Positions 1 to 46,172 are shown, counted from the first letter of the stretch. The stretch: DNA of 46,311 bases from Anaeromyxobacter sp. (GCA_036523995.1 DATDDC010000562.1:1-46311); one strand, 5' to 3'. Notes: a model not told the origin generated them from the sequence alone. Numbers and translations are program-made.

Positions 1-1289
1 GCGAACACCATCGAGCTCATGAGGTTCCGGGCGTCCACGACGAGCCGCACGTCGCGGTAGAGCGCGGGGTCCTTGAACGGATCGTGCGCCGTGGAGACCA
101 CGAGCGCGTCGTGACGGCCGAACGCCTCGGGCGTGAGGGGGATCGACTCGAGGTCGAGGTGGTGCTGGCGGCCCTTGCGGGCCCTGGGGAAGAACGGATC
201 GCAGTAGGCCACCTCGGCCCCGCCCTCGCGGAGCAGCTCCAGGATCTCGTAGGAGGGCGACTCCCGGTCATCGTCGATGTTGGCCTTGTAGGAGAGGCCC
301 AGCACGAGCACGCGCGAGCCCTTGAGCGCCTTGCCGTCCTCGTTCAGCCCCTGCATCACCTTCTGGACGACGTAGCCGGGCATGCGGGTGTTGATCTCGC
401 CCGCCAGCTCGATGAAGCGGGCCCAGTGCCCGTACTCGGCGGCCTTCCAGGACAGGTAGAACGGGTCGAGCGGGATGCAGTGCCCGCCCAGCCCCGGGCC
501 CGGGTAGAAGGGCATGTAGCCGAACGGCTTCGTCTTGGCGGCCTCGATGACCTCCCAGACGTCGATGCCCATGCGATCGAAGATGACCTTGAGCTCGTTC
601 ACGAGCGCGATGTTCACCGAGCGGAAGATGTTCTCGAGGAGCTTCGACGACTCGGCCACGCGCGCGTGCGAGACCGGCACCACCCGGTCCATGGCCGCGC
701 CGTAGAACGCCGCGGCCGCCTCGGTGGACGCCGCGTCGACACCGCCCACGATCTTCGGGATGGTCTTGGTGGTGAAGTCCTTGCGGCCCGGGTCCTCGCG
801 CTCGGGCGAGAAGGCGAGCAGGAAGTCCTTCGAGCAGGTGAGCCCGCTCTCCTCCAGGATGGCCCGCACCTCGGTGTCGGTGGTGCCGGGATAGGTCGTC
901 GACTCGAGGATGACGAGCTGCCCCGCGCGCAGCCGCTTCGAGATCTGGCGCGCCGTCTCGTGGATGTACGAGTTGTCCGGCTCGCGGTGCGGGCCGAGCG
1001 GCGTCGGGACGCAGATGACGATGGCGTCGCAGGCGCGCAGCCGGCCGAAGTCGGTGGTCGCCTGATAGCGCCCGCCGGCCACGGCGGCCGCGACCCGCTC
1101 CGGGCCGATGTGCTTGATGAAGGACTCGCCTCGCGAGATGGCCTCCACCTTCCTGGGGTCGACGTCGAAGCCGGTGACGGTGAAGCCCGCCTCCGAGAAC
1201 ACGAGCGCGAGGGGCAGGCCCACGTAGCCCTGGCCGATGACCCCCACGAAGGCGCTTCGGTTCCTGATCTTCTCGAAGATGTCGCTCAT
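1..1289 (-). CDS. wbpA: UDP-N-acetyl-D-glucosamine 6-dehydrogenase family nucleotide-sugar dehydrogenase (WbpA/WbpO/TviB-like); 3' end truncated by the window edge
   Basis: Not in the ORF track because there is no stop in the window. Manual minus-strand translation from ATG 1289 gives MSDIFEKIRNRSAFVGVIGQGYVGLPLA (Rossmann motif), KLLENIFRSVNIALVNEL, catalytic PGPGLGGHCIPLDP, GLSYKANIDDDRESPS and VVDARN near position 25. Confidence 0.9.
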   Translation of the reverse strand, partial: MSDIFEKIRNRSAFVGVIGQGYVGLPLALVFSEAGFTVTGFDVDPRKVEAISRGESFIKHIGPERVAAAVAGGRYQATTDFGRLRACDAIVICVPTPLGPHREPDNSYIHETARQISKRLRAGQLVILESTTYPGTTDTEVRAILEESGLTCSKDFLLAFSPEREDPGRKDFTTKTIPKIVGGVDAASTEAAAAFYGAAMDRVVPVSHARVAESSKLLENIFRSVNIALVNELKVIFDRMGIDVWEVIEAAKTKPFGYMPFYPGPGLGGHCIPLDPFYLSWKAAEYGHWARFIELAGEINTRMPGYVVQKVMQGLNEDGKALKGSRVLVLGLSYKANIDDDRESPSYEILELLREGGAEVAYCDPFFPRARKGRQHHLDLESIPLTPEAFGRHDALVVSTAHDPFKDPALYRDVRLVVDARNLMSSMVF

Positions 1290-1333
1290 GAGCACGTCGC
1301 GGCGACGTGAGGTCGCCGCGATCCCGGGGCATT

Positions 1334-2374
1334 CTACTGAGAGGAACGGGCCTGGTCGATGTACCACGACGCCGCGACGTCGAGGCCCTGCGCCACCGTG
1401 TGCGTGGCCTCGTATCCTAGAAGGGAGCGCGCCTTCCCCACGTCGGCGAGCGAGTGCCGGACGTCGCCCGCGCGGAAGTCGCGGTACACCGGCTCGCGCT
1501 TCGCGGCGTCCGGCGCCACGCGGGCCACCCTCTCCCGGATGAGGGCGAAGAGCTCGTTGAGCGTGGTGCGGCCGCCGCAGGCGACGTTGAAGACCTGGCC
1601 CACCGCCTCGGCCCGCTCCGTCGCAGCCGCGAGCAGGTTCGCCTGCGCCACGTTGTCCACGTAGCAGAAGTCGCGGCTCGTCTCGCCGTCGCCGTTGATG
1701 AACACCTCGCCTGCGCCGAGCAGCCCGGCGAACCAGAGGGGGATCACGGCGGCGTACGGGCCCTCGGGATCCTGCCTCGGCCCGAAGACGTTGAAGTAGC
1801 GGAGCCCGACGAGCTCGAGGTCGTAGCACCGCCCGAAGGCGTGCGCGTACAGCTCGTCGGCGTACTTCGAGGCCGCGTAGGGGGAGAGGACGCGCCCCAC
1901 CGCCTCCTCCACCTTCGGCAGCCCGGGGTGGTCTCCGTAGACCGAGCTCGAGCTCGCGTAGACGATCCGGCGGATGCCGGCCTCGCGCGCCGCCTCGAGG
2001 ACGCGCAGGAACCCGGTGACGTTGACCTCGTGCGTGTTCATCGGGTCCTTGATCGAGCGGGGGACCGAGCCCAGGGCCGCCTCGTGGAGCACGACGCCGG
2101 CGCCGCTGCAGGCCCGCCGGCACGCCGCGGGGTCGCGGATGTCCCCCTCGATCATCGTGAACCGCTCCGCCTGGCGAGGCGCGACGCGGGCGCGGACGGC
2201 GGCCACGTTGGCCTTGCTCCCGGTGGAGAAGTCGTCGAGCCCCGTCACGACCTGATCGAGCGAGAGCAGGCGCTCGACGAGATGGGATCCGATGAATCCC
2301 GCCGCGCCGGTCACGAGCCACTTCCTCGGGCGCTCGCGCAGGCGCGCCGTCACGGAGTCGTAAAGCGATGCCAC
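1334..2374 (-). CDS. wbpP: UDP-GlcNAc(A) 4-epimerase, extended SDR (WbpP/TviC-like), 346 aa
   Basis: KWLVTGAAGFIGSHL, HEAALGSVPRSIKDP, YASSSSVYGD, SPYAASK, LRYFNVFGPRQDPEGPYAAVIP, FRAGDVRHS. Start re-called at GTG 2374 with an AAAGGGG RBS-like element upstream. Confidence 0.9.
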   Translation of the reverse strand: MASLYDSVTARLRERPRKWLVTGAAGFIGSHLVERLLSLDQVVTGLDDFSTGSKANVAAVRARVAPRQAERFTMIEGDIRDPAACRRACSGAGVVLHEAALGSVPRSIKDPMNTHEVNVTGFLRVLEAAREAGIRRIVYASSSSVYGDHPGLPKVEEAVGRVLSPYAASKYADELYAHAFGRCYDLELVGLRYFNVFGPRQDPEGPYAAVIPLWFAGLLGAGEVFINGDGETSRDFCYVDNVAQANLLAAATERAEAVGQVFNVACGGRTTLNELFALIRERVARVAPDAAKREPVYRDFRAGDVRHSLADVGKARSLLGYEATHTVAQGLDVAASWYIDQARSSQ

Positions 2375-2741: not shown

Positions 2742-5700
2742 ATGGACTTCTCGATCCCCGCGAAGATCGACCGCTCGAGGATCCTCGGGGCGATCGGCGT
2801 CCTCTCGCTCCTGGCGGGCGCCGCCTGCGGCGCCGGCGGGAATGGCGCCCAGGGTGGACGGCCCCCAGGCGCCGCTCGAGTCGCCGCGCCGCTCGCGGCC
2901 ACCGTCTTCCCGCTGAAGGCGTCGGCGAACGGCCGCTACCTCGTGGACCAGACCGGGACGCCCTTCTTCATGGTGGGCGACTCGGCGCAGAGCGCCGGCT
3001 CGAACCTCACCCTGGCCGAGTTCCAGACCTACCTCGACAGCCGCGTCGCCAAGGGGTTCAACACCGTCAACATCAACCTCATCGACCACAAGTTCGCGAA
3101 GGGCGGGCTCGGCGCCACGCTCTCGGGCGTGCCCACCGACACGAACGGCGACCTGCCCTTCACCCAGAACGTGGCCGGCGGCGCCTTCGACGGAACATGG
3201 AACACGGCGTACTTCGGCTCTCCCAACGACGCCTACTTCCACGAGGTGGAGCAGGAGGTCGACTACGCCGCGAGCAAGGGCGTGCTCGTCACGCTGAACG
3301 TCTTCTACTGGGGGTTCGGAGGCGGCGACGAGGGCTGGTCCGTGGAGCTCGGGCTGTCCGCCAACACGCAGGCGGTGTGCCTCGCCTTCGGCCAGTACAT
3401 CGGCAACGGCCGCGGCGTCTTCGGCGGATTCAGGGGCAAGACCAACCTCATCTGGATGATCGGCGACGACCAGGCGCCCGCTCCGGGCAGCGAGACCGAG
3501 ACGCGGCTGCACCGGATCATGGAGGGCATCCAGGGGACCGCGCCCGTCTCCACCCTCTGGACGGGCTCGTGGGGCGCGCCCAGCATCTCGACCGATCAGG
3601 CCGCCTTCGCGGCCGCGATGACGCTCAACGCCGTGTACGCCTACGGCATGGCGGCGGTGGACGCGCAGTCGCGCAATGCCTGGCAGCGCGCTCCTGCCAT
3701 CCCCGCCTACATGAAGGAGACCGCGTACGAGCTGTCCCAGGTCGGCGTGAGCGGCACGAGGCTGGCCCTGAGGCAGGCGATGTACTCGTCGATCCTCGCC
3801 GGTGCGACGACGGGCGGGCTCTACGGGCATCGCGACATCTGGTCGTTCAACACCTCCACGTGGCACGCGACCGTCGACTCGACGGCGAGCGGTCCGTGGT
3901 CGAGCGAGCTCGACTCCCCGGGGGCCTTCGACCAGGCGCGCGTGGGAGCCCTGTTCGGCTCGCTCGCCTGGTGGAAGCTCGTCCCCGACGGCCAGGGCGC
4001 GAGCGGCACGCTCGTCACGGCGGGCGCGGGGACCTTCGGCGGCTCCGACTGGATCGCCGCCGCGGCCGCTTCAGACGGGACCGCTCTCGTGGCGTACGTC
4101 CCGCCGAACGGGATCCTGGGCCGGAGCTTCTCCGTGAACATGGCCGCCATGAGCGTCGCGTCGCACGCGCACTGGTGGGATCCGACGACGGGCCTCTACA
4201 CCGAGATCGCGACCGGGATCCCGAACGGCGGCACGCGCTCGTTCACGACGCCGGGGGCCAACTCCACCGGCGAGAACGACTGGATCCTGGTCCTCACGCC
4301 GGCGGCGCCGAGCGCGCCGCCGACGGTGGCGACGCCGGCCTCGGCGACGCCGAACCCGGTGACCGGAACGTCGACGAGCCTGAGCGTGCTCGGCGCCGAC
4401 GACGGCGGCGAGGCGAGCCTCGTCTACACCTGGTCGGCGGTGGGGACGCCGCCCGGTCCCGTGACGTTCTCGGCCAACGGCACGAACGCCGCGAAGAGCA
4501 CCACGGCCACCTTCGGCGCCGCGGGGAGCTACACACTCCAGGCGACCATCCGCGACGCGGATGGCCAGGCGGTGACGAGCGCGGTGGCGGTGACGGTGAG
4601 CCAGACGACGACGCGCATCTCCGTGGCGCCGGGGAGCGCGACGGTGGCGACCGGGGCGACGCAGCGGTTCACGGCGAGCGCCCTCGATCAGTTCGGGCGG
4701 CCGCTGGCGACGCAGCCGTCCTTCGCCTGGACGGTGAGCGGGGGCGGTGCGATCGACGCGACGGGCCTGTTCACGGCGGGTCCCACGGCGGGAGGCCCGT
4801 TCACGGTGACGGCGTCGGTCGGGATCCTGAGCGGCGGGGCGAGCGTGACCGTGGCGGCGGCGTCGGCCCCGCGCTACCAGGTGAACGGCGGGGGCGCGGC
4901 GGCGGGGACGTTCTCGGCGGACCAGCTCTTCTCGGCGGGGAGCACCTTCCGCACGGCGGGCGCCATCGACGTGAGCGGAGTGGCGAGCCCGGCCCCCGCG
5001 GCCGTCTACCAGACGGAGCGCTACGGCAACTTCACCTACGCCTTCGGCGGGCTCACCCCCGGCGCCTCCTACGTGGTTCGGCTCCACTTCGCGGAGATCT
5101 GGTGGACGACCGCCGGGAGCCGCCTCTTCGACGTCGCCATCAATGGTGTGCAGGTTCTCTCCAGCTTCGACGTCTTCGCCGCGGCTGGAGGAACCAACCG
5201 GGCGATCGTCGAGGTGTTCACCGCGCCCGCCGACGGGGGAGGCCAGGTCGTCATCCAGTTCACGACGCTGAAGGACAACGCCAAGGTGAGCGGCATCGAG
5301 ATCCTGGGCGCGTCGAGCGCGCCGCCCACGGTGGCGGCGCCGGCCTCGGCGACGCCGAACCCTGTGACGGGGACCTCGACGAGCCTGAGCGTCCTCGGCG
5401 CCGACGACGGCGGGGAGGCGAGCCTCGTCTACACCTGGTCGGTCCTGGGGACGCCGCCCGGGCCGGTGGCGTTCTCGGCGAACGGCACGAACGCGGCGAA
5501 GAGCGCCACGGCCACGTTCGTGGCGGCGGGGAGCTACGCGCTGCAGGCGACGATCCGCGACGCGCAGGGGCAGACCGCGACGAGCGCGGTGACGGCGACG
5601 GTGAGCCAGACCGCGACGCGCATCTCGGTCGCGCCGGCGAGCGCCACGGTGCTCACGGGGGCGACGCAGCAGTTCACGGCGAGCGCTTTCGACCAGTTCG

Positions 5701-6320
5701 GCCGAGCGCTGGCGACGCAGCCGACCTTCGCCTGGACGGTGAGCGGAGGCGGGACGATCGACCCGACGGGCCTCTTCACCGCGGGGACCGTGGCGGGCGG
5801 GCCGTTCACGGTGACGGCCTCGGCCGGGCTCGTCGGCGGGAGCGCGAGCGTGACGGTCGTCGCGTCGGCGGCCCCGCGCTACCAGGTGAACGGCGGGGGC
5901 ACGGCGGCGGGGACGTTCGCGGCGGACCAGCTCTTCTCCGCGGGGAGCACGTTCCGGACCGCGAGCGCCATCGACGTGAGCGGGGTGACGAACCCGGCCC
6001 CGGTGGCCGTGTACCAGACCGAGCGCTACGGTAGCTTCAACTACGCCTTCGGCGGGCTCACTCCCGGCGCCGCGTACGTGGTGAGGCTCCACTTCGCGGA
6101 GATCTGGTGGACGACCGCCGGGAGCCGCCTCTTCGACGTCTCCATCAACGGTGTGAATGTGCTCTCGAGCTTCGACATCTTCGCCACGGCCGGCGGCGCC
6201 AACCGGGCGCTCGTCGAGGCGTTCACCGCGCCCGCCGAGGCGGGAGGCCAGATCGTCATCCAGTTCACCACCGTGAAGGACAACGCCAAGGTGAGCGGCA
6301 TCGAGATCCTGGGTCCCTGA
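2742..6320 (+). CDS. Exported (probable lipoprotein) DUF4038/GH140 apiosidase-like hydrolase with collagen-binding-like domain and two tandem [Ig-like x2 + malectin] modules, 1192 aa
   Basis: AGGAGG at 2731-2736 precedes ATG 2742. Hydrophobic leader ends in AGAAC. FPLKASANGRYLVDQTGTPFFMVGDS, KGFNTV, NLIWMIGDD and WWDPTTG...NDWILVL are typical of DUF4038 plus the collagen-binding-like domain. VYQTERYG..VRLHFAEI..RLFDV.ING..NAKVSGIEIL (malectin) occurs twice. Confidence 0.8.
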   Translation: MDFSIPAKIDRSRILGAIGVLSLLAGAACGAGGNGAQGGRPPGAARVAAPLAATVFPLKASANGRYLVDQTGTPFFMVGDSAQSAGSNLTLAEFQTYLDSRVAKGFNTVNINLIDHKFAKGGLGATLSGVPTDTNGDLPFTQNVAGGAFDGTWNTAYFGSPNDAYFHEVEQEVDYAASKGVLVTLNVFYWGFGGGDEGWSVELGLSANTQAVCLAFGQYIGNGRGVFGGFRGKTNLIWMIGDDQAPAPGSETETRLHRIMEGIQGTAPVSTLWTGSWGAPSISTDQAAFAAAMTLNAVYAYGMAAVDAQSRNAWQRAPAIPAYMKETAYELSQVGVSGTRLALRQAMYSSILAGATTGGLYGHRDIWSFNTSTWHATVDSTASGPWSSELDSPGAFDQARVGALFGSLAWWKLVPDGQGASGTLVTAGAGTFGGSDWIAAAAASDGTALVAYVPPNGILGRSFSVNMAAMSVASHAHWWDPTTGLYTEIATGIPNGGTRSFTTPGANSTGENDWILVLTPAAPSAPPTVATPASATPNPVTGTSTSLSVLGADDGGEASLVYTWSAVGTPPGPVTFSANGTNAAKSTTATFGAAGSYTLQATIRDADGQAVTSAVAVTVSQTTTRISVAPGSATVATGATQRFTASALDQFGRPLATQPSFAWTVSGGGAIDATGLFTAGPTAGGPFTVTASVGILSGGASVTVAAASAPRYQVNGGGAAAGTFSADQLFSAGSTFRTAGAIDVSGVASPAPAAVYQTERYGNFTYAFGGLTPGASYVVRLHFAEIWWTTAGSRLFDVAINGVQVLSSFDVFAAAGGTNRAIVEVFTAPADGGGQVVIQFTTLKDNAKVSGIEILGASSAPPTVAAPASATPNPVTGTSTSLSVLGADDGGEASLVYTWSVLGTPPGPVAFSANGTNAAKSATATFVAAGSYALQATIRDAQGQTATSAVTATVSQTATRISVAPASATVLTGATQQFTASAFDQFGRALATQPTFAWTVSGGGTIDPTGLFTAGTVAGGPFTVTASAGLVGGSASVTVVASAAPRYQVNGGGTAAGTFAADQLFSAGSTFRTASAIDVSGVTNPAPVAVYQTERYGSFNYAFGGLTPGAAYVVRLHFAEIWWTTAGSRLFDVSINGVNVLSSFDIFATAGGANRALVEAFTAPAEAGGQIVIQFTTVKDNAKVSGIEILGP
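4311..6320 (+). repeat. Intragenic tandem duplication, 2 x 1005 bp (335 aa): Ig-like/Ig-like/malectin module
   Basis: AGCGCGCCGC starts at 4311 and 5316, and GAGATCCTGGG starts at 5298 and 6303 (period 1005 bp). The two protein copies are near-identical with many synonymous differences. Confidence 0.95.
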
Positions 6321-6423: not shown

Positions 6424-8367
6424 ATGAGCCGAGCCGCTCCGCTTGCGTTGCTCGCTGCCGTCGTGGGCGGCTGCGCCGCGGGCTGCACGTCGGGCCGCGT
6501 CTCGCCGAAGGGGGCGAGCGCCGCGATCGTGACGACGATCGCCCCGACCGACACGAGCGTGGGCGTCGGCGGCACCGTCGCGTTCACCGGAACGGTGACG
6601 GGCACGTCGAACACCGCCGTGCACTGGTCCGTCGTCGAGCCCGCCGGCTGCGGCGCGGTCTCCCCGACGGGCGTCTACACCGCGCCGCCCGCCCCCGCAG
6701 TCTGCCACGTGCTCGTGGCGAGCGCGGCCGATCCCGGGAAGACCGCCACCGCGAAGGTCACGGTGACGGGGACGCCCCCCTCGTTCACCATCTCGCCCGA
6801 CCCGGCCACGGTCCTCGTGAACGGGACGCAGCAGTTCACGGTCTCCCCGGCCGCAGCCGTCACCTGGAGCGTCGTCCAGACCGCGGCGACGGAGGCGCCC
6901 GCCTTCCCGCTCGCGCTCTCCGCGAACGGCCGGTACGTCGTCGACGGGAACGGTCGCCCGTGGCGCGTCCAGGCCGACGCAGCCTGGTTCATGACGGCGC
7001 TCGCCACGCCGGCCCAGGTGGACACCTACCTCGCCACGCGCAAGGCCCAGGGGTTCAACGCCTTCTATCTCATGTCGATGGTGCACCCGGGCGGCTACGC
7101 GGCCGTCCCCAACGCGCCCGACGACTACGCCGGCCACCCGCCGTTCACGGGGGCCCTCTGGACCACGCCGAACGCGGCCTACTGGTCGAACGTCGACGCC
7201 ATCATCGACAAGGCCGCGGCGCAGGGCATGGTGGTGATGTTCGCGTTCGAGTACCTGGGCTATCCCTCGACCAATCAGGGCTGGCACGCCGAGGTCAACG
7301 CCCGGAGCGCCGCCGACTCGACGACCTGGGGCACCTGGCTCGGGAACCGCTACAAGACGAAGGGCAACCTCATCTGGTTCGCTCTCGGCGATCAGACGCC
7401 GGACCCCGCGGGCCCGGAGCCGAACGTCCAGGCGCACCATCAGGCCGCCATCGCCGCCATCCAGGCGGCGGGCGCCTCGCAGCTCTTCATGGCCGAGCCC
7501 ATGGGCGGAAACTCGAATCCCGTCATGGACGCGCCGGCCTTCGCGTCCGTCCTCGACCTGAACAGCTACTATGGCTACGGGCCGAACGGGCACGGCGACT
7601 GCTACCCGCAGGCCGATCGCGCCTACCGCGGCGTCATGCCGCCGAAGCCGGTCTGGGTCCAGGAGGGCGGCTACGAGTTCGAGAACAACACCGGGGGCTT
7701 CACCGGCCAGCCCTACGAGACGCGCCGCACGCGCTTCTGGAGCGTGCTCGCCGGCGGCACCGCGGGCGACGGGTTCGGCAGTCGCGACGCGTACCAGTGG
7801 ATCTCGTTCCCGAACGGCCTCGGCACGCCCGGGGCGGCGTTCTCCAAGGTCGCCTTCGAGCTCTTCGCGACGCTGCCGTGGTGGGACCTCTTGCCCTCGG
7901 GGACCGGGACCGGCTTCGCGGGCAAGACGCTCGTGACGTCGGGAGGCGGAACGAACGGAGGGCTGGACTGGGTCACGTCCGCGGTGACGTCGACGGGCTC
8001 GCATCTCCTCGCGTACGTCCCGACGACCGGCGGGACGGGCTCGCGCACCCTCACCATCGACATGACCGCGATGAAGGGCTCCGCGCAGGCGAGCTGGTGG
8101 GATCCGGCGAGCGGGGCGAAGACGGCCATCGGCACCTTCCCCAACACCGGCACGCAGGCGTTCACCTCTCCCGGCGCCAACGCGGGCGGGCAGAACGACT
8201 GGGTCCTCCTCCTCGATGCCGCGGGGGTGGGGCCCTGCGGGACCATCTCCGGCACGGGGCTCTACACGGCCCCGGCCGCGGTGCCGATCGGCGGCGCCTG
8301 CAGGGTGAGGGCCGCGCTGCAGGCGAATCCGAGCTCCGTCGCGTACGCCAGCGTCATCGTCCAGTGA
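6424..8367 (+). CDS. Lipoprotein with Ig-like domains and a DUF4038/GH140-like catalytic unit plus collagen-binding-like domain, 647 aa; paralog of the upstream gene
   Basis: GGGGAG precedes ATG 6424. Leader MSRAAPLALLAAVVGGC is lipobox-like. FPLALSANGRYVVDGNG, QGFNAF, NLIWFALGD, EGGYE and WWDPASG..FTSPGANAGGQNDWVLLL match the paralog. Confidence 0.8.
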   Translation: MSRAAPLALLAAVVGGCAAGCTSGRVSPKGASAAIVTTIAPTDTSVGVGGTVAFTGTVTGTSNTAVHWSVVEPAGCGAVSPTGVYTAPPAPAVCHVLVASAADPGKTATAKVTVTGTPPSFTISPDPATVLVNGTQQFTVSPAAAVTWSVVQTAATEAPAFPLALSANGRYVVDGNGRPWRVQADAAWFMTALATPAQVDTYLATRKAQGFNAFYLMSMVHPGGYAAVPNAPDDYAGHPPFTGALWTTPNAAYWSNVDAIIDKAAAQGMVVMFAFEYLGYPSTNQGWHAEVNARSAADSTTWGTWLGNRYKTKGNLIWFALGDQTPDPAGPEPNVQAHHQAAIAAIQAAGASQLFMAEPMGGNSNPVMDAPAFASVLDLNSYYGYGPNGHGDCYPQADRAYRGVMPPKPVWVQEGGYEFENNTGGFTGQPYETRRTRFWSVLAGGTAGDGFGSRDAYQWISFPNGLGTPGAAFSKVAFELFATLPWWDLLPSGTGTGFAGKTLVTSGGGTNGGLDWVTSAVTSTGSHLLAYVPTTGGTGSRTLTIDMTAMKGSAQASWWDPASGAKTAIGTFPNTGTQAFTSPGANAGGQNDWVLLLDAAGVGPCGTISGTGLYTAPAAVPIGGACRVRAALQANPSSVAYASVIVQ

Positions 8368-8459
8368 GCCCCGGCTCCGCGCCGGCCGAGCGTCCGGCGC
8401 GAGGGGGCCCCCGAGGGACGACGCGCCGCTGCGACCCGGTGGGATTGCACCCGATCCCC

Positions 8460-8539
8460 GGTACATGGTTACACGAACCGTGTACCCGCGTCGCGGTACA
8501 CGGCCCTGCGCCATGGGGGAGCGGCGCGTCGGATATACT
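8460..8539 (+). promoter_or_regulatory. Putative operator (clustered GGTACACG-like octamers; palindrome CCGTGTACC-N8-GGTACACGG) with a TATACT -10-like hexamer upstream of the CDP-sugar genes
   Basis: ggtacatg 8460-8467, gttacacg 8468-8475, cgtgtacc (inverted) 8479-8486, ggtacacg 8495-8502 and TATACT 8534-8539, all in the intergenic gap 8368-8607. Confidence 0.45.
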
Positions 8540-38168: not shown

Positions 38169-39338
38169 TCAGCCGGGGCCCGGCGAGCACGAGGGGGCGC
38201 CGCGGGGTGCCGCCCGCCCGGCGCGGCGCGACAGGACGCGCTCGTAGAGCTCGACGTACTCGCGCCGCATCCGCTCGGCCGAGAAGCGCGCCACCGCCGC
38301 CGACCGCGCCCGCCGCCCGCAGGCGCGGCTCCTCTCCGGATCCGCCTCGAGCGCCGTGAGCCGCCCCCGGAGCGCCTCCTCGCTGCCCACCGGGACGAGG
38401 AATCCGGTCACGCCTTCCTCGATCACGTTCGGGACGCCGCCCACCCTCGTCGACACCACCGGGAGCCCGGTGGCCATGGCCTCGGGGATGGCGAGCGGGA
38501 GGCCCTCGGTGTTCGAGCACAGGACGAAGACGTCGAGCGCGTTCAGGACGTCCGGCACGTCCCGCCGGACGCCGAGCAGGTGGACGAACGGCGCCACGCC
38601 GAGCGCTGCGGCGAGATCGGACAGGCTCTGGAGGAGGGGTCCGTCGCCCGCCACGACGAGGTGGCTCCGCGGCGAGAGGAGCGGCGCCGCCGCCCGGAGG
38701 AGGAGCTGCTGGTTCTTCTCCACCGCGACCCGGCCGACGGTGCCCAGCACCCAGGCCCTCTCCTCGATGCCGAGCTCCTGGCGCACCCGCCTGCGGGCGG
38801 ACGGCTCGGGATGGAACCGTCCCAGCTCGATGCCGTTCGGGATCACCGTGAGCCGGCGCTCGTCGATCTCGCGCCTGCGGCGGGCGAAGGCCGCGGTCTC
38901 CTCCGACACCGCCACGAAGGCGTCGAGGAAGCGCCCGGCGAGGTTCCCGGCGATGAGCCGCGTCCCGCCCTTCGGATTGTTGCCGTGCTTCGTGTGCACG
39001 ACCGCGATGCCGGAGAGCCGCGCCGCGGGCGCGCCGTAGATGAGCGCCATGCGGTTGTGCGTATGGGCGAGGTCGGCGCCGTTCTCCTTGAGCCAGCGGG
39101 AGAGGCGAAGGATGAGCGCCAGGTCGACGCCCGGCCGCGGCCGCGACACCCGCGCCACCTCCGCGCCCGCCGCCCGGAACTCGGCCGCGAGCGGCCCGTC
39201 GGGCGGCGGCGCCAGGGAGAGCGCCGTCACGCGATAGCCTTCGCGGAGCTGGCCGATGGCGAGCTCGAGCGCCACCCGCTCCTGTCCCCCCATGGCGAAG
39301 GACGACAGGACGTGGACGATGTGGCGTCTGGCGGGCAC
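38169..39338 (-). CDS. Glycosyltransferase family 4, about 389 aa
   Basis: GGAGG precedes GTG 39338. HVLSSFAMGGQER, HTH, HTKHG, IPNGIE, TVGRVAVEKN, DVFVLCSNTEGLPLAIPEAMATGLPVVSTRVGG. Confidence 0.9.
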   Translation of the reverse strand: MPARRHIVHVLSSFAMGGQERVALELAIGQLREGYRVTALSLAPPPDGPLAAEFRAAGAEVARVSRPRPGVDLALILRLSRWLKENGADLAHTHNRMALIYGAPAARLSGIAVVHTKHGNNPKGGTRLIAGNLAGRFLDAFVAVSEETAAFARRRREIDERRLTVIPNGIELGRFHPEPSARRRVRQELGIEERAWVLGTVGRVAVEKNQQLLLRAAAPLLSPRSHLVVAGDGPLLQSLSDLAAALGVAPFVHLLGVRRDVPDVLNALDVFVLCSNTEGLPLAIPEAMATGLPVVSTRVGGVPNVIEEGVTGFLVPVGSEEALRGRLTALEADPERSRACGRRARSAAVARFSAERMRREYVELYERVLSRRAGRAAPRGAPSCSPGPG

Positions 39339-39487: not shown

Positions 39488-41404
39488 GTGGCCCCGAGAA
39501 GAAGGCAGACCCTCGCCGCGCTCCTCGGCGTCGCCGGCGCCCTCCCGGCGTGTCGGAATGCCGCGCTGCCGCGGGCCTTCGTCCTCGACGACGGCGTGAA
39601 GATGAGCGCCGACGGCCGGCTCATGAGCCTCGTCGACCTCCCCGGCTACGCGAAGGCGAACCCGGCCTGGGACGGGGGCGCCATCACGCTCGCCGGCGCC
39701 CGCGGCGAGACCGTCGCGTTCCAGGTGATGGTGCAGGCCGGAGCGCGCGACCTCCCGGGCGCCACGGTGAGCGTCTCGGACCTGCGCCGCGACGGAGGCG
39801 GCGTCATCGCGGCGGAGCGGCTCACCCGCTTCCGGGAGTGGTACGTCGCGGTGACCGTGCCGAGCGCTTCCCCGGGCGGCAGCGCCGGCAAGGGCGAGTA
39901 CCCGGACGCCCTCGTCCCCGCCGACACCCCGGGCTTCGGCCTCCCCGTCGACGTCCCCGCCGCGAGGACGCAGGGCATCTGGGTCGACTGCGCCATCCCG
40001 GCCGCGGCGGCGGCCGGCACGTACCGGGGCGCGCTGGTGGTGAGCGCCGGCGGCGCCGAGCTCGCGCGCTTCGACGTGAGGCTCGAGGTCCACGGCTTCG
40101 CCCTGCCCGTCGAGCGTCACCTCCCGTGGCGCATCGGGTACAGCGGCTGGGAGAGCGTGCCCGCGCGCCTCGGCATCGCCGAGGGCAGCGCCGGGTGGCT
40201 CGAGCTCGAGAAGGACCTCTATCGCCTCGTCTGGGAGGGCCACCGCGCCGTCCCCACGACGCACTACCACGATCTCCGCCTCGAGACCCGGGGCGCGGGC
40301 GCGGCCCTGCGGATCGACTGGGCCCGCTTCGACCGCCGCTTCGGCGGCTACCTCGACGGCTCCGCGTTCGAGAGCGGACAGCCGGTGAACGCCTTCTCCC
40401 TGCCCGTCAACCTGCACCGCGGCTGGCCCTTCCGCCTCGGGCCGGACCCGGCCGCTGTGGACGCCGGGAGGCTCGCGGCCCTCTCCCGGCTCGTGGCCCG
40501 GCACTGGGACGAGAAGGGCTGGCGCCTCGCCGACGCCTTCGCCTACGTGGCGGACGAGCCGGGCCGGGATCGCATCGCGAGCGTTCGCAAGGCGTGCGCC
40601 GCCATCCACCAGGGCGACCCGCGCATCCGCACCTCGGTCGCGCTCTACACGGAGCTCGGGCGCGACGCGCGCGGCCTCGTGAAGGAGCTCGCCGGGCACG
40701 TCACGAGCTGGGAGCTCGCGGGCGACTACGCGGATCTCCCCGCCCTGCGCGAGCGGCAGGCGGCGGGAGACCGCCTCGGCCTCTACCAGGGAGGGGAGCC
40801 CTACGAGGGGGGCGAGGCCGTGGACGACGACGGGCTCGCCCTCACCACCTGGCCGTGGATCGCCTGGCGCTACGGCCTCGACTCGCTCTTCCTCTACAAC
40901 ATGACGGAGTGGGACTACGCGCGCCTCGACCGGGCGAACGTGCCCTGGGCGAAGGGCAAGCGCGAGATCTGGGAGAACCCGCTCAATCAATCCTGGGCGA
41001 CGAACAGCCAGGGCGTGCTCCTCTATCCGGGGCCGTACGTGGGGCGGAAGGGCGTCGTGGCCTCCATCCGCCTGAAGCAGGTCCGGCGCGGCCTCCAGGA
41101 CTACGAGTATCTGTGGCTCGCCCGGCGCGGCGGCGACGGCCCGAAGGCCGACGAGATCTCGCGCCGGCTCGTGCCGCGCGCGCTCCACGAGGCGGGCCCT
41201 CTCGGGAAGGTCGGGCGAGGCCGCGGCGCCTGGGAGCGCGACCCGCGCGCCTGGGCGGCGGCGCGGCTCGAGCTGGCGAGGGCCATCGAGGCGAGGAGCC
41301 CTCAGCGCCTCGTCGAGCCGCCCTCCGAGAACCCCGCCCGATCGCTTCCGTCGACCCGCGCCCCGAGCGACGGCGCGGGCGGCATGCGCCGCGCGTTGGA
41401 GTAG
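39488..41404 (+). CDS. Lipoprotein with DUF4091/GH123-like glycoside hydrolase domain, 638 aa
   Basis: Leader ending ALPAC; GARGETVAFQ, YPDALVP, QGIWVD..IP....GTYRG, YVADEP, G.LLYPG, ASIRLKQVRRGLQDYEYL. Confidence 0.7.
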   Translation: MAPRRRQTLAALLGVAGALPACRNAALPRAFVLDDGVKMSADGRLMSLVDLPGYAKANPAWDGGAITLAGARGETVAFQVMVQAGARDLPGATVSVSDLRRDGGGVIAAERLTRFREWYVAVTVPSASPGGSAGKGEYPDALVPADTPGFGLPVDVPAARTQGIWVDCAIPAAAAAGTYRGALVVSAGGAELARFDVRLEVHGFALPVERHLPWRIGYSGWESVPARLGIAEGSAGWLELEKDLYRLVWEGHRAVPTTHYHDLRLETRGAGAALRIDWARFDRRFGGYLDGSAFESGQPVNAFSLPVNLHRGWPFRLGPDPAAVDAGRLAALSRLVARHWDEKGWRLADAFAYVADEPGRDRIASVRKACAAIHQGDPRIRTSVALYTELGRDARGLVKELAGHVTSWELAGDYADLPALRERQAAGDRLGLYQGGEPYEGGEAVDDDGLALTTWPWIAWRYGLDSLFLYNMTEWDYARLDRANVPWAKGKREIWENPLNQSWATNSQGVLLYPGPYVGRKGVVASIRLKQVRRGLQDYEYLWLARRGGDGPKADEISRRLVPRALHEAGPLGKVGRGRGAWERDPRAWAAARLELARAIEARSPQRLVEPPSENPARSLPSTRAPSDGAGGMRRALE

Positions 41405-42618
41405 CGCATGGTGAGGCCCGCGAGGAAGACGTGCGTCTGCACCGGCTCGAGCCCGGCCGGCTGGTCGTACTGGTAGGCCATGGTGTAGTGCGCCGTCGCC
41501 AGCACCTCGTCGGCGAGGCCCCAGAAGAGCGCGACGTCGGCGGTCGCCGCGTTGCCGAGCCCCGCGGCCGCGCGCGACGGCGCCTGGCCCAGCGGCGCCG
41601 CGTGCAGGAAGCCGGCGGAGAGGGCGAGCTGGCGGGGGTACTCCGCGTCGAAGCCGAAGAACAGGCGCGCCACGGCGCCCTGGCCGAGCGCCACGGTGCC
41701 GGTGTGGAGATCGGCGGTCGAGCCGTAGGTGAGGCCGAGCGACGCGCCCCCGTCGCGCGTGGCGTACCGCACGGTGAGGCTGCCGGTGGGGAGGATGGCC
41801 AGCGGATAGCTGCCGGCGAAGGTGAGGACCTGCTCGACGCCCGCCGTCGCCTGCCCGTTCCAGCGCCAGCTGAAGTCGTGGTTCCAGCGGGCCACGAGCG
41901 CGTTCCGCGTGGTCCAGGACGGATGCGGCGAGTCCTCCGAGGACCTGAGGAAGTCGCCGCTCGCGCGCAGCTCGGCCCCGATGGCGTCGCGCGCGCCCGG
42001 GCCGTACTCGTTCCGGAGCTCGCGATCGAGGGCCAGGGAGCCGGTCAGCGTGGCGTTGAAGCTCCCCAGCGCGCCCTGGGGCGCGACGAGCGACCCGCTC
42101 AGCGCCTGGCCGAAGCGGAGCTGGGGCGAGGCCTCGAGCGCGTACGCCTCGGCGAGCGAGGCGGTCACGAGATCGGCGTCCGAGCGCGAGCGGAACGTGG
42201 GCTCCCCCGCGTCGGCTTGCCGGTGCGCGAGCTGGAACGCCGTCCCTCCCTGCGTGACGTTTCCGCTCACGAGCAGGGCGCTGCGGCTCGAGAGCTCCGC
42301 GCCGAGCGCCAGGACGAGCTGATTGGCGTACGAGGAGGCCACCTCGTACTGGCCGAGCGTGAGGTTGCCCGCGAAGAGGTACCCGGCGCGCCAGGTCACC
42401 CGCGGGGACTGGAGCTGCAGCGTCAGCGCGGGGCCTACTTCGGTGAAGGCGTGGTGATCGCTCTGGCCGCCGCTCGTGTCGACGTACCCGGCGTTCGCGA
42501 CCCCGTCGAGCTGGACGACGGTGTCCGCCGCCGCCGGCGGGGCGGCGAGGGCGAGCGCGAGCGAGAGGATCCGGGCTGCGTGCGCGGCGGGGCGGCGTGG
42601 GAGGCGCGTGCGCTGCAC
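41302..42618 (-). CDS. Probable outer-membrane beta-barrel protein (candidate EpsX/Wzp-type partner of the short OPX), about 438 aa
   Basis: Signal peptide ILSLALALAAPPAAA. Alternating amphipathic strands with aromatic girdles (VTWRAGYLF, RWNHDFSWRWNGQATAG, AHYTMAYQY, HVFLAGLTMRY). Start re-called at GTG 42618. Confidence 0.65.
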   Translation of the reverse strand: MQRTRLPRRPAAHAARILSLALALAAPPAAADTVVQLDGVANAGYVDTSGGQSDHHAFTEVGPALTLQLQSPRVTWRAGYLFAGNLTLGQYEVASSYANQLVLALGAELSSRSALLVSGNVTQGGTAFQLAHRQADAGEPTFRSRSDADLVTASLAEAYALEASPQLRFGQALSGSLVAPQGALGSFNATLTGSLALDRELRNEYGPGARDAIGAELRASGDFLRSSEDSPHPSWTTRNALVARWNHDFSWRWNGQATAGVEQVLTFAGSYPLAILPTGSLTVRYATRDGGASLGLTYGSTADLHTGTVALGQGAVARLFFGFDAEYPRQLALSAGFLHAAPLGQAPSRAAAGLGNAATADVALFWGLADEVLATAHYTMAYQYDQPAGLEPVQTHVFLAGLTMRYSNARRMPPAPSLGARVDGSDRAGFSEGGSTRR

Positions 42619-42709: not shown

Positions 42710-44839
42710 ATGCTAGAGTGCAGCGCCTTGGCGCTCGGAGCAAAGCGCGCATGCGGTCCCTTGGCCGCGGTACTCGCGCTGGGCGGCGTCTTCGGCCCGC
42801 TCCCCGCCTGCGCGTCGCCGCGCGGCGGCGGAGGCCCACCGCCGCCGGACGTCGCCCACCCGCTCCTGATCCCTCCGGGGCGCCTTCCGGCGATGCGCGC
42901 CGCGGCCGCGAAGGGAGCGCCCGCCTGGCGGGCGCTCAAGGCCGTCGTCGACGCCAACTACAAGAAGGAGGGGCTCGGCGACGCCGGCGTCATGAACGTC
43001 GCCGTCGTCTACCTCGTCACGGGCGAGCGCAGGTACTGCGAGAGCCTCGCGGCCGAGGCCCGGCGCACCATGGCCGCGGCCAACCCGCGCGCGGACAGCT
43101 ACTACGGCTACGCCGGGATCATGGGCGCCCTCGCCACCGAGCTCACCCATTGCGAGCCGGTCCTGGACGCGCCGCTGCGCGCGGACATCGCGACCTACCT
43201 CGACACCTGGACCGACGAGCTCTGGTTCCACAACAAGGGCTCGGGCTGGGGGCTCGAGGATCCCGGGAACAACTACCACGTGTCCTTCCTCCTCGGGACG
43301 GCGTGGGCGGGCCTCGCGCTCCAGGCGATGGGGCACCCGAGCGCGGCGAAGTACCTCGACATCGTCGCGAGGGGCGTGGACCGGGAGCTCGCCTACCTCG
43401 CGGAGCGCTGCGCGGGCGGCGGCTGGCCGGAGGGCACGAACTACGGCGAGGGCGCGAAGGGGCGGCTCGCCGACCTCTTCTCGCTGCTGGCGGCGGCCGG
43501 AATCCGGAACGCGTTCCAGTCGAGCGACTGGTTCCCCGCGGCGCTGCGGTACGCGCACTACCAGCTCCAGCCGGACGGCGCGCACCTCTATCCGGCCGGA
43601 GACATGGCGCGCGAGTCGGACATGACCGCCAACTCCTACGACCGCCAGTACGTGCAGCAGATGGTCTACTGGCTCGCCGACTCGGAGGCCCGGGCCCTCG
43701 GGCAGTGGTACCTGGAGAACGTCGCCCGGGACTACCAGACCGGGTTCCGCCACCCGGCGGCGCTGTGGCGGGATCTGGTCTACGCCGTCGACGTCCCCGC
43801 GAAGCCCCAGTCCACGCTTCCGCTCGCCTACCGGGCGAGGGGAGACGAGCTCGTGTCGATCCGCAGCGGCTGGGACGCGGACGCCACCGCGCTCACGGTG
43901 TCCGGCGCCTCGCGCATCGATCAGTCCCACGCTCACCTCGACACCGGCGGCTTCACGCTCTGGCGCAACGGCTGGCAGCTCGTGGACGCCGTGACGTACA
44001 GCCACTCCGGGCTCCTGCAGGAGCCAGGGGCGCACAACCTCATCCACGTCGCGGGCGCGAGAAAGGTGGCGGCGGCGACGCCGAAGGGGATCGTCCGCTT
44101 CGAGGACGACCCCCGCGCGAGCTATCTCCAGATCGACGGCACCGCTCTCTACGCGCGCGGCGACCCGAGGCGGTCAGGGAACTTCCTGGTGCGGGAGCTG
44201 CGGGGGCTCCTGCGCGACAAGAACCTCCTCCTCGAGGAGTTCACGCGCGAGATGGTGTTCCTGAAGCCGGACGTGCTCGTCGTCTACGACCGGGTGCGGC
44301 CGGCGGAGCCGGGCACGGCGTTCGACTGGCGGTTGCACTTCCCCGTCCAGCCGTCGCTCTCCGGCGCCACCCTCCGCTCCACGAACGGCAAGGGCGGCGT
44401 CACCGTGGCGCTCCTCCTCGGGGACGCGCCCGCCGTCGTGCCCGACGCCGACCTCGCGCCCGACGGCAGCAAGGCCTGGCGAGCCCAGGCGACCACGCAA
44501 TCGGGCAGGTTCCTCGCCGTGGCGCGGGTCGCGTCGGGAGGGGCGCCGCCGCTCGACGCCTCGCCGGTGACGACGACCGGCGACATGGAGGGCGCCGCCG
44601 TCGGCGGCGACGTGGTGCTGTTCAGCAAGCTCCCCTTCGGCGCGGCGCCCCGGCTCGGCTTCAGCTACACGGTCCCGACCGTGCCCGGTCGCGTCCACAC
44701 GCTCGTCGACATGGCGGGGAGCGTGGGCGTCTCCATCCGGCGCGAGGGCGCGAACACCGTCGTCACCATCGGCAAGGGATCGGATCGGACCGCCAGCGCG
44801 GAGGGGGTCGTCCGCTTCAGCGAGCCGCCACCTCGTTGA
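42710..44839 (+). CDS. Heparinase II/III-like polysaccharide lyase-fold lipoprotein, about 709 aa (start uncertain: 42710 or 42728)
   Basis: Leader ending GPLPAC; helical domain with GNNY and GGGWPEGTNYG; then RSGW, HAHLDTGGFTL, AHN and beta-rich C-terminus VVYDRV..WRLH. Confidence 0.7.
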   Translation: MLECSALALGAKRACGPLAAVLALGGVFGPLPACASPRGGGGPPPPDVAHPLLIPPGRLPAMRAAAAKGAPAWRALKAVVDANYKKEGLGDAGVMNVAVVYLVTGERRYCESLAAEARRTMAAANPRADSYYGYAGIMGALATELTHCEPVLDAPLRADIATYLDTWTDELWFHNKGSGWGLEDPGNNYHVSFLLGTAWAGLALQAMGHPSAAKYLDIVARGVDRELAYLAERCAGGGWPEGTNYGEGAKGRLADLFSLLAAAGIRNAFQSSDWFPAALRYAHYQLQPDGAHLYPAGDMARESDMTANSYDRQYVQQMVYWLADSEARALGQWYLENVARDYQTGFRHPAALWRDLVYAVDVPAKPQSTLPLAYRARGDELVSIRSGWDADATALTVSGASRIDQSHAHLDTGGFTLWRNGWQLVDAVTYSHSGLLQEPGAHNLIHVAGARKVAAATPKGIVRFEDDPRASYLQIDGTALYARGDPRRSGNFLVRELRGLLRDKNLLLEEFTREMVFLKPDVLVVYDRVRPAEPGTAFDWRLHFPVQPSLSGATLRSTNGKGGVTVALLLGDAPAVVPDADLAPDGSKAWRAQATTQSGRFLAVARVASGGAPPLDASPVTTTGDMEGAAVGGDVVLFSKLPFGAAPRLGFSYTVPTVPGRVHTLVDMAGSVGVSIRREGANTVVTIGKGSDRTASAEGVVRFSEPPPR

Positions 44840-46172
44840 TGATGAAGCGCGCCTTGCCGGCCGCGGTGCGAGGGATCCAGTCCACGTAGCGGATGTCGAT
44901 CTCCGCGTCGCTGCCGAGGTGCTGCTTGAAGATGCGCTGGATCTTCGGCTCCTCCACCGCCGGCACGTAGGAGCCTTCCCGCCGCACGATGTGGATGGTG
45001 ATCTGGCCGGCTCGCTTCTGCACGATCTGGAACTGCTCGACGCCCTGGACCATCTTGAAGGCGTGCGGCCCGATGGCGCCGGAGATGGCGTCGCCGCTCG
45101 CCCGGTAGAGGACGTCGTTCACGCGTCCGTCGAGGCGGGTGATGCGGCCGAGGGTGCGCCCGCAGCGGCAGCCGTGCGGCGCGAGGACGCCGGCGTCGCC
45201 GTTCCGGTAGCGGATCATGGGCGTCGCCAGGTTGTCGAGGTCGGTGACGAGGAAGGGCCCCTCGCCGGCGAGGGCGGCGCCGCCGCCCGGCTGCTCGACC
45301 TCGATGACGGAGTGCTCGTCGCAGGTGTGGTAGACGGGCACCTCCGCCTCGGGGCAGGCGTAGCCGAGCGACTGGATCTCGCCGCAGCCGTAGTAGGGCA
45401 GGACCTTCGCCCCGAAGGCCCGGGCGATGGTCTCGCGCCAGCTGTCGAGGAGGAGCTCCGCGGTGGGGAAGACGGCGTCGAGCTCGACGCGGACGCCGCA
45501 CCGCTCGGCGTGGCACGCGAGGAGGTAGAGCGCCGAGGTGTAGCCGACCAGGAAGCGGGCCCCCGAGGCGCGGATCTCGTCGAGATATCGCCGGGCATTG
45601 TCCGGCCCGAGCTCGAAGGCCGGTAAGAAGGTCTTTCCGGAAAAGAAAGATTTGACGCGATCGAGCCGGCGGCGCTTCGCGACGCCGAGCGTTCCGCCGA
45701 AGAGCTGGACGAACGGCTCGCCCAGGCGCAATCCGCCCCAGCCGAACCCGCGCCAGTAGCAGCCGCGCTGCCACACCGAGCCGGCCCGGTCGCGCGCGAT
45801 CTGGATGGGAATCCCCGTGGTGCCGCCCGTCGCGCCGATCTCGACGGGGATGTCGCCCGCGAGGCGCAGCGCGTCCCCGTGCTCGCGCAGCGCGTCCTTG
45901 GTGAGGATGGGGAGCCTGGGCAGGTCGGCGAGGCCGCGCACGTCGTCCGGCCGCACGCCGCGCTCGTCCATCATGCGGCGGTAATGTGGGCTCCGCGCGT
46001 ACGCCTGCTCGACGAGGCGAACCAATTTTTTGTTGCGGAGATCGTCGAGGCGCGCGCGCTCCCATCGCTCGCTCTCGTGGAGGAACCGGAGCGCCGCCGT
46101 GAGGCCGAACCCCTCCGCCCGGGACCTTGCCTCCCAGTGAAATCGGTAGAGCCTGGCGCGAAGCGACGTCAT
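44817..46172 (-). CDS. Phenylacetate-CoA ligase/CapK family adenylate-forming enzyme, about 451 aa
   Basis: LADLPRLPILTK, ATGGTTGIP, GYTS, YYGCGE, VTDLDN.ATPMIRYRNGD, CRCGRTL, GRVND, QFQIVQ. Confidence 0.85.
   Translation of the reverse strand: MTSLRARLYRFHWEARSRAEGFGLTAALRFLHESERWERARLDDLRNKKLVRLVEQAYARSPHYRRMMDERGVRPDDVRGLADLPRLPILTKDALREHGDALRLAGDIPVEIGATGGTTGIPIQIARDRAGSVWQRGCYWRGFGWGGLRLGEPFVQLFGGTLGVAKRRRLDRVKSFFSGKTFLPAFELGPDNARRYLDEIRASGARFLVGYTSALYLLACHAERCGVRVELDAVFPTAELLLDSWRETIARAFGAKVLPYYGCGEIQSLGYACPEAEVPVYHTCDEHSVIEVEQPGGGAALAGEGPFLVTDLDNLATPMIRYRNGDAGVLAPHGCRCGRTLGRITRLDGRVNDVLYRASGDAISGAIGPHAFKMVQGVEQFQIVQKRAGQITIHIVRREGSYVPAVEEPKIQRIFKQHLGSDAEIDIRYVDWIPRTAAGKARFIINEVAAR

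Follow-up and report, generated by a model that had tools for sequence, protein, structure and literature searches.

The 46,311-nucleotide contig DATDDC010000562.1 of Anaeromyxobacter sp. (GCA_036523995.1), analysed over its whole length and called the window below, carries part of a polysaccharide locus that probably encodes a Wzx/Wzy pathway of a conserved myxobacterial family. As read from the sequence, this family would be distinct from the three systems of Myxococcus xanthus, and its product here would likely be an exopolysaccharide based on N-acetylhexosaminuronic acid (HexNAcA) and decorated with amide and acyl groups, with lipoproteins predicted to trim or clear it. The window is the longest of the 817 contigs (C562) of a 5.5 Mb genome with 72% GC. 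Its 32 genes (g1 to g32) occupy 95.7% of the window, and their GC content at third codon positions (GC3) is 0.94-0.98 in all. Family calls are based on Pfam and NCBIfam profile searches with curated cut-offs; several names rest on scores under these cut-offs (Table 1). The inventory of a preliminary description, which listed HexNAcA precursor genes, a modified-sugar cassette, five glycosyltransferases (GTs), two Wzx flippases, Wzy, an OPX protein with a barrel, ligases, deacetylases and four glycanases, was recovered in full; it had left out g8, g11, g16-g18, g21 and g24.

The locus is truncated in the window and continues on another contig, C721. The same description had treated positions 1 to 46,172 as one contiguous locus; the genes are indeed contiguous, but the window holds only a part. 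No gene for a priming transferase lies inside the window, and of the two priming transferases in the whole genome one (PF02397) is on C721. The right ends of the window and C721 overlap imperfectly, and a single contig from an independent run, X2 (10,102 bases, depth 9.49), spans both sides of the join, covering the last 3 kb of C721 and the last 863 bases of the window. The window end lacks 12 bases that are present in C721 and X2, in a very GC-rich stretch; this difference is probably an assembly slip or a strain variant. Genes of C721 match locus neighbours in related genomes at 50-84% identity. The loss of the priming transferase from the locus was therefore rejected. Window and C721 together hold 45 genes in about 64 kb. 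At the left end g1 has no stop codon and runs off the contig, and no join was found on this side.

The core of the locus marks the conserved family and comprises a GT4, two co-polymerases, a likely pseudokinase, the CE4-like protein g19, Wzy, Wzx, a short OPX protein and an outer-membrane barrel. The GTs, Wzx, co-polymerase and OPX parts of a Wzx/Wzy pathway are all found in the window, and the priming gene on C721. There is a single OPX protein, a single barrel and a single Wzy in the 64 kb; the two Wzx proteins, g12 and g22, are 21% identical. The score of g20 exceeds the cut-off of PF04932, a family that does not separate polymerases from ligases, and its genomic context favours a polymerase. 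The OPX protein g14 is a short lipoprotein without a Wza_C domain and the barrel gene g30 lies in the same cluster, as in class 3 (D1D2) OPX/barrel systems; the export part falls into the established short-OPX/barrel class characterised in PMC9601211 and bioRxiv 2022.02.11.480155.

The g17-type kinases have no tyrosine in their last 45 residues in any of 11 relatives; the Walker A pattern is matched in six of these, and the Walker A' motif, where scored, is EA(N/S/T/G/P). The C-terminal 69 columns of g18 align to the g17 kinase with a probability of 55.7% (E 1.2e-4), a modest homology, and no Walker A motif is present in the g18 family alignment. The run at 20482-24583 combines two co-polymerases with a likely pseudokinase, and a tyrosine tail is found nowhere in it; several Polyangia-labelled loci encode the kinase separately. 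The structural model of g19 has 3QBU, 5ZNT and 3RXZ as its top folds (TM score 0.44-0.48 by query). Residues D42, H43, H115, H117 and H118 are invariant in its family, and the Asp/His metal motifs of the CE4/NodB fold are present.

The preliminary description regarded the locus as unusually elaborate; instead, it belongs to a widespread family. A search of GTDB genomes with g19 found at least 589 related loci, the best 80 of which are labelled mostly Polyangiaceae, Kofleriaceae, Haliangiales and Anaeromyxobacteraceae; in 30 of these 80 a CapK-like gene lies within 10 kb of g19. All 38 genomes chosen by g19, drawn from 38 of the 80 loci, contain a g20-type Wzy. It is also present in 60 of 201 genomes from the class to which G421 belongs (Polyangia, to judge by its Labilithrix label) and in 53 of 121 from the family of Chondromyces apiculatus (G420). 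Within the window's own genus g19 was found in two of 37 genomes. Family f6, which we take to be Myxococcaceae, the family likely holding Myxococcus, has no g20-type Wzy in 178 genomes at E 1e-20; 105 of 106 f6 genomes lack g19, and the remaining one has a weak match. The nearest f6 matches are distant (39-42% identity for OPX, 25-29% for the co-polymerases).

Eighteen extended related loci, picked for long contigs, were compared. They contain Wzy in 18 cases, g19 in 16, the priming transferase in 15, OPX, g15 and g28 in 14 each, g16, g17 and g22 in 13 each, g18 and the kinase/STAS genes in 11 each, PP2C in nine and the barrel in eight. Anaeromyxobacteraceae-like genomes share the core gene order from g15 to g22, with 42-80% identity, and Polyangia-labelled genomes have it in rearranged form. 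G415, G416 and G417 also retain the g22-g32 block, at 47-86%. In the cultured Chondromyces apiculatus one contig (G420:C52) clusters the lyase-like gene, Wzy, transferase, STAS, co-polymerase, kinase and barrel together with GH123, PP2C, dehydrogenase, Wzx and OPX; g19 lies elsewhere in that genome. A quick tree of g19 has weak deep support and no visible donor, the nearest named loci carrying Anaeromyxobacteraceae and Haliangiales labels. Two related loci contain genes of other kinds, an exosortase-CAAX protease fusion in G285 (L096:10383-11837) and a tRNA-synthetase class II-like gene, under cut-off, in G423 (L146:7072-8340).

Comparison with the M. xanthus exopolysaccharide (EPS), MASC and BPS gene lists, as given in the accessible part of PMC7310880, revealed no gene-for-gene match, in agreement with the preliminary view of a separate system. 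The EPS-specific models NF041843, NF041875 and NF041876 scored under cut-off, and the EpsY model reached 83.5 against a cut-off of 320. According to the same source, the EPS machinery consists of EpsZ, Wzx, Wzy, EpsV, EcpK, EpsY and EpsX, and includes the hydrolase MXAN_7450. Its likeness to the present locus lies in the Wzx/Wzy logic and the short OPX with a barrel (PMC7310880, PMC9601211), and in a kinase-less co-polymerase with a pseudokinase (a likely one here) and a glycanase in the cluster, MXAN_7450 in EPS (PMC7310880, PMC12004946), so far as these texts were available. In particular, g16 and g18 resemble EpsV/EcpK and HfsA/HfsB (accessible text of PMC12004946), to which the present locus adds a second co-polymerase. 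In contrast to EPS, this second co-polymerase has a kinase, Wzy has no orthologue in f6, and the amidotransferases, the CapK-like ligase, g19, the lyase-like genes and the partner switch described below are not in the EPS list.

The BPS system (WzcB, WzyB, WzxB, WzaB and WzpB, with a ManNAcA-rich product) shares the kinase-fused co-polymerase, and an acidic, HexNAcA-rich product is likely here too; its list has O-acetyltransferases and ten GTs, and is without AsnB, CapK-like, CE4, lyase and C-methyltransferase genes. A contiguous Sandaracinus 'BPS' cluster published in that source may instead be a member of the present family. The MASC/SPS (exo) system is similar in its short OPX, barrel, polysaccharide deacetylase and acyl-transfer genes (PMC7310880, accessible text) and differs in its co-polymerase set-up; moreover, a separate OPX/co-polymerase locus occurs elsewhere in the genome studied here (C90, C806). 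For the FemABX pair and the WecE aminotransferase there was no Pfam or NCBIfam match in the 32 window genes and no Pfam match in the 13 genes of C721. The TIGR families of XrtA/PEP-CTERM EPS loci all scored under cut-off. A 2025 review lists three pathways (PMC12288465, as far as its text is accessible). We found no description of the present family in a literature search to which subscription papers, figures and bioRxiv supplements were out of reach; published synteny figures may show members as EPS or BPS.

Three ligase-like proteins are encoded in the window, the AsnB-like g25 and g27 and the PaaK/CapK-like g32, together with two deacetylase-like proteins, g7 (PIG-L) and g19. In g25 a cysteine stands at position 5, the HRRL and NGE motifs are replaced and the PP-loop is kept; the N-terminus is the same in three of three orthologues. 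This degenerate AsnB (33055-34923) lies in the same run as the intact g27. The 13 genes of C721 encode a second lyase-like lipoprotein with its motifs kept, a lipoprotein with a weak beta-helix match, two CE4 deacetylases, two GTs, a DUF362 protein, a GAF-PP2C protein, a third AsnB, a NadE-like protein, the priming transferase, a kinase-STAS fusion and one protein without a family, GNAT-like by eye only. The fusion, represented by two genes in relatives, and GAF-PP2C are neighbours of the priming transferase (L136:1530-2258 and 7547-8824; G000:C721). The NadE-like and AsnB genes (L136:4275-7300) are kept together in six of 18 loci, and an AMP-binding ligase gene adjoins them in G417 and G421.

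Lipoboxes, found on g3, g4, g14, g24, g29 and g31, mark g3, g4, g29 and g31 as predicted lipoproteins with a glycanase-like part, although surface exposure is not readable from a lipobox. Catalytic residues are kept in all four. The preliminary description counted four such enzymes of three folds; the number stands, and they form three families, but the TIM barrel is common to two of these, GH140 and GH123. The catalytic D and E of g4 align with 3KZS/5MSY (GD and EG positions), where they lie 97 residues apart, a spacing that fits D187 and E284, presumably the catalytic residues of GH140. Protein g3 likewise carries D and E, and g4 is 35% identical to its core. In g29 the Asp-Glu dyad (YVADEP) aligns to 8K2J and is kept in four of four relatives checked; its PF13320 match is only just over cut-off. 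The model of g31 matches 2FUT (Foldseek E 1e-22, TM score 0.64, 15% identity), and PF07940 scores 23.2 bits, under the cut-off of 24. The toroid with a beta-sandwich and the catalytic Tyr and His place g31 in the heparinase II-type lyase clan (PL21/15/35 and kin), with N188, Y189, Y245 and H407 invariant in its family. It is not heparinase II (PL21) proper, having Tyr189 instead of His at the first catalytic position.

The lyase-like genes are linked to the pathway but are optional and often located elsewhere. A profile of 18 lyase-like proteins matched 35 of 42 genomes of a panel that included 11 training genomes. In 21 of the 42 a lyase-like gene lies within 30 kb of Wzy, and without the training genomes in ten of 31, against 0.41 expected. 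In a second, previously unused genome set, lyase-like genes occur in 32 of 49 Wzy-positive and four of 20 Wzy-negative genomes, and within 30 kb of Wzy in six of the 49 (0.6 expected). The co-occurrence of these genes with the pathway, on which the preliminary description had staked its proposal, is thus far above chance. In the window g31 overlaps g32; G415 and G417 retain g31 in the same position at 69-73% identity. A GH123-like gene is present in five and a GH140-like gene in one of the 18 loci, so that the glycanase-like enzymes are a variable set from genome to genome, not the single lipoprotein toolkit once proposed.

The left block, g3-g13, looks like a detachable module. It comprises two GH140-like lipoproteins, a cassette (g5-g7, g9-g11) and its own Wzx (g12) and GT2 (g13); GC and GC3 show no difference between this block and the core. 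The cassette occurs in four of the 18 loci, g13 in the same four, and the best match of g12 in none. The cassette is interleaved inside the core with g19, OPX and Wzy in G418 and G419, lies near an ABC exporter (wzm/wzt genes) in G416 and G417, and sits in another polysaccharide locus with a different OPX in G285 and G432; the last finding speaks against the single decorated polymer of the preliminary description. Copies in relatives add a class III aminotransferase, and that of G416 also has a pyruvyl-transferase-like gene absent from the window (L117:10035-11339 in G417; L122:260-1561 and 8626-9903 in G416).

As a 4,6-dehydratase g5 was set aside, TIGR02622 not being among its matches; the nearest solved chain is 6VO6, which we take to be the C4 dehydrogenase Cj1427. 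The likeness of g5 to 6VO6 suggests a 6-hydroxy branched sugar. The function of Cj1427 is described in the available text of PMC10680097, which does not name entry 6VO6. DUF4910, found in g11, has been tied to modified-sugar operons (PMC4000134, accessible part); the neighbourhood of CA_C2195 in the same source likewise contains an epimerase/dehydratase, nucleotidyltransferase, GT, methylase and exporter, a grouping that recurs in many phyla. The window copy has no class III aminotransferase, a gene that G416 and G417 do carry. GH140-like genes occur in six of 42 panel genomes, in four of seven with a close C-methyltransferase and two of 35 without one (Fisher p 0.004, a significance inflated by kinship). 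Of nine GH140-like copies with an examined neighbourhood three adjoin polysaccharide genes, two G424 copies and one sub-threshold G416 match being excluded. A tight coupling of GH140 to the cassette was tested and not shown.

From these assignments the following pathway may be proposed. UDP-GlcNAcA/GalNAcA would be made by g1 and g2, the C721 transferase would prime undecaprenyl phosphate, and seven GTs would assemble the repeat unit. Carboxylates could be amidated by g27 and the C721 AsnB, and g25, predicted to have no working glutaminase, may use another amine or act in partnership with g27. Amines freed by g19 and the two C721 deacetylases might be re-acylated by g32-type ligases. The repeat would be flipped by g22 and polymerised by g20, with g16 as putative partner of the likely pseudokinase g18 next to g17 and presumably no tyrosine cycle, and exported via g14 and g30. 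The heparinase-II-like proteins may break uronic-acid linkages through beta-elimination, and their most likely role would be envelope housekeeping, as for AlgL. The kinase/STAS/PP2C switch near the priming gene could gate synthesis. The left block, via its likely C4 dehydrogenase, might provide a second glycan, or else an optional side unit, with a 6-hydroxy C-methyl-branched sugar.

Several of these steps have counterparts in other systems. In the sources as far as available, AlgL of P. aeruginosa clears the periplasm and the stewartan enzyme WceF of Pantoea cuts the EPS of its own cell; here too a polymer-cleaving enzyme is encoded in a biosynthesis cluster, but these are one enzyme each, of other folds, compared to up to six predicted glycanase-like lipoproteins of four kinds. 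Control of polysaccharide production by a STAS protein, kinase and phosphatase is likewise reported, in the accessible texts, for SypA/SypE of Vibrio fischeri and HenR/All4160 of Anabaena. What sets the present arrangement apart is that a kinase-STAS fusion and a GAF-PP2C gene adjoin the gene for the priming transferase.

Some observations weigh against the proposed family pathway. Homologues of g1 and g2 are present in only four and six of the 18 loci, and those of g25 and g27 in three and two, so that polymer chemistry varies across the family. The sugar specificities rest on family names, several of which are under curated cut-offs. Related genomes are not independent, and p-values therefore overstate. 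Only six of 49 genomes in the second set have a lyase-like gene within 30 kb of Wzy, in a set with many short contigs where 14 of the 49 Wzy genes lie less than 15 kb from a contig start, and 17 of the 49 genomes have no lyase-like gene at E 1e-40; because of these two counts we regard the lyases as optional, with most copies elsewhere. Finally, GH123-like paralogues, 25-28% identical to g29, are found on three other contigs of this genome (C350, C143, C483).

These observations bear on several other explanations. All 45 genes might build a single polymer with a C-methyl-branched sugar, the GH140-like proteins being its dedicated debranching enzymes. The co-occurrence of GH140-like genes with close C-methyltransferases (4/7 versus 2/35), the GH140-like pair flanking the locus in G417 that also holds the cassette, the interleaved cassettes of G418 and G419 and the single OPX, barrel and Wzy would all fit; we nevertheless consider this unlikely, since few GH140-like copies (3/9) adjoin polysaccharide genes, G285 and G432 have the cassette in a different polysaccharide locus, g12, the second flippase, is 21% identical to g22 and has no counterpart in the 18 loci, and three of the four overlapping genomes are closely related to the window. 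Nor is it probable that the glycanase-like lipoproteins serve in foraging or predation, attacking foreign glycans and leaving the polymer of their own cell alone, and have merely gathered in a surface-glycan island. The malectin domains of g3 on long stalks, the solved GH140 relatives being apiosidases, the solitary position of most GH140-like copies, the second-set lyase-like copies mostly away from Wzy and the three additional GH123-like genes point in this direction. Against this, lyase-like genes are near Wzy 10-25 times more often than by chance and track its presence, g31, which overlaps g32, is kept in the same position in G415 and G417, and no uptake transporter was found among the 45 genes. 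Foraging is most plausible for g3 and g4 and least for g31.

The heparinase-II-like proteins could instead be polymer-level C5 epimerases that shape rather than cut the polymer. The structural matches include dermatan-sulfate epimerase 6HZN, which has the same fold (rank 13, TM score 0.59, E 4e-8), and the family has an invariant Asn-Tyr where alginate lyase 3A0O has Ser-His; yet every one of the 12 matches ranked above 6HZN is a lyase and the PL35 chondroitinase 9O3Q has an aromatic residue (Asn-Trp) at the same place, which makes epimerases rather improbable. Least convincing is the view of g20 as an O-oligosaccharyltransferase in a locus whose main task would be to glycosylate sorted surface proteins, a role put forward for exosortase-linked loci. 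Several best NCBIfam matches are XrtA/PEP-CTERM-associated, though all under cut-off, and the G285 locus has its exosortase-CAAX fusion. However, the presence of co-polymerases, OPX and barrel argues for a long, exported polymer, and neither an exosortase nor a PEP-CTERM-like tail on an exported protein was found among the 45 genes, to which the exosortase search was limited; we hold this to be very unlikely.

No solved or named relative was found for g8 and g18. Protein g8 has two similar Cys-containing halves and relatives in several phyla, is GNAT-fused in one Myxococcota cluster and has a homologue in one of the 18 related loci. Gene g24 lies two bases downstream of g25, and the three closest loci retain it at 65-70%. 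As a fifth enzyme it was rejected, the match being at repeat level only, and as a toxin it has no evidence, the weak TcdB_toxin_midN match (E 0.006) overlapping its FG-GAP repeats. No tRNA or Rfam match was found in the window, and no sigma-54 sites above chance. Other polysaccharide genes occur elsewhere in the genome (C90, C806, C498, C46, C611); these contigs carry a second OPX/co-polymerase set, the second priming transferase, GT clusters and a g1 paralogue at 57%.

Table 1. Genes and contig end of the window, with the matches behind each assignment.
Feature	Position	Strand	Assignment	Basis
g1	3..1289	-	NDP-sugar (likely UDP-GlcNAc) 6-dehydrogenase	PF03721/PF00984/PF03720; TIGR03026 417 bits, cut-off 190
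g2	1334..2374	-	TviC/WbpP-like C4 epimerase	NF011728 407 bits, under cut-off 760
g3	2742..6320	+	GH140-like lipoprotein, PKD/Ig stalks, two malectin domains (left module)	PF13204, PF11721; lipobox; D and E motifs
g4	6424..8367	+	GH140-like lipoprotein, Ig domains (left module)	PF13204; 8T9W and 3KZS/5MSY matches
g5	8608..9648	+	short-chain dehydrogenase/reductase (SDR), likely NDP-sugar C4 dehydrogenase (cassette)	PF01370; nearest solved chain 6VO6, E 6e-31
g6	9674..10504	+	glucose-1-phosphate cytidylyltransferase-like (cassette)	TIGR02623 212 bits, under cut-off 300
g7	10510..11163	+	PIG-L-family deacetylase-like (cassette)	PF02585; HPDD and HQDH motifs
g8	11180..12253	-	no known family	no Pfam/NCBIfam match; unnamed Atlas clusters only
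g9	12360..13613	+	NDP-sugar C-methyltransferase (cassette)	PF08484, PF08421
g10	13635..14201	+	RmlC-type 3,5-epimerase (cassette)	TIGR01221 over cut-off
g11	14198..15574	+	DUF4910/DUF2172/HTH_47 protein (cassette)	Pfam
g12	15711..17177	+	Wzx flippase A (left module)	PF13440
g13	17198..18205	-	GT2, travels with cassette	PF00535
g14	18373..18960	-	short OPX lipoprotein, 195 aa	Poly_export and SLBB; lipobox
g15	19313..20485	+	GT4, opens conserved core run	Pfam
g16	20482..21558	+	short, kinase-less polysaccharide co-polymerase	profile alignment with the periplasmic part of g17, probability 94.7%
g17	21555..23969	+	co-polymerase fused to BY-kinase domain without Tyr tail	TIGR03007/TIGR03018 under cut-off; GEGKT, EAN, DGPP motifs
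g18	23993..24583	+	likely BY pseudokinase	profile match to g17 kinase
g19	24598..25707	+	CE4/NodB-fold deacetylase-like, without signal peptide; family marker	model pLDDT 89.9; fold matches
g20	25709..27073	+	Wzy-type polymerase (Wzy_C); family marker	PF04932 44 bits, cut-off 32
g21	27085..29199	+	Gfo/Idh/MocA oxidoreductase fused to SDR	Pfam; 9/18 loci
g22	29196..30677	+	Wzx flippase B (core)	Pfam
g23	30694..31560	+	GT2	Pfam
g24	31571..33052	-	Cys-rich FG-GAP repeat lipoprotein	PF13517; lipobox
g25	33055..34923	-	AsnB-like amide synthetase, degenerate glutaminase domain	motif inspection
g26	34939..36153	-	GT4	Pfam
g27	36150..38087	-	AsnB-like amidotransferase, glutaminase motifs intact	TIGR01536 over cut-off
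g28	38169..39338	-	GT4	Pfam; 14/18 loci
g29	39488..41404	+	GH123-like beta-HexNAcase lipoprotein	PF22680, PF13320; 8K2F/8K2J matches
g30	41302..42618	-	outer-membrane beta-barrel, BBP2/EpsX-like	Atlas feature score 0.96-0.97, TM 0.70-0.80
g31	42710..44839	+	heparinase-II-fold lyase-like lipoprotein	model pLDDT 81.6; Foldseek
g32	44817..46172	-	PaaK/CapK-like adenylate-forming ligase	NF041878, TIGR02155 under cut-off; TGGTTG motif
contig end	46265..46311	.	overlaps C721 right end in reverse; 13 further genes there	overlap and X2 contig

Each ingredient of the locus has a precedent elsewhere, and the family widens a known kind of system without a new mechanism. More tentatively, and with some doubt on our part, it might be a fourth myxobacterial pathway that many Polyangia use as their chief system for slime or fruiting-structure polymer, with a mixed ring of g16, g18 and g17, switch-gated priming and its own unclassified Asn-Tyr lyase family. 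The two-co-polymerase and pseudokinase module, the partner switch, the glutaminase-dead amide synthetase and the unclassified lyase group are all parts open to test. Three M. xanthus pathways are the basis of polysaccharide genetics in myxobacteria, and the proposed fourth family is present in about 30-44% of sampled Polyangia genomes; its copy in the cultured Chondromyces apiculatus is a direct target for identifying the secreted polymer.

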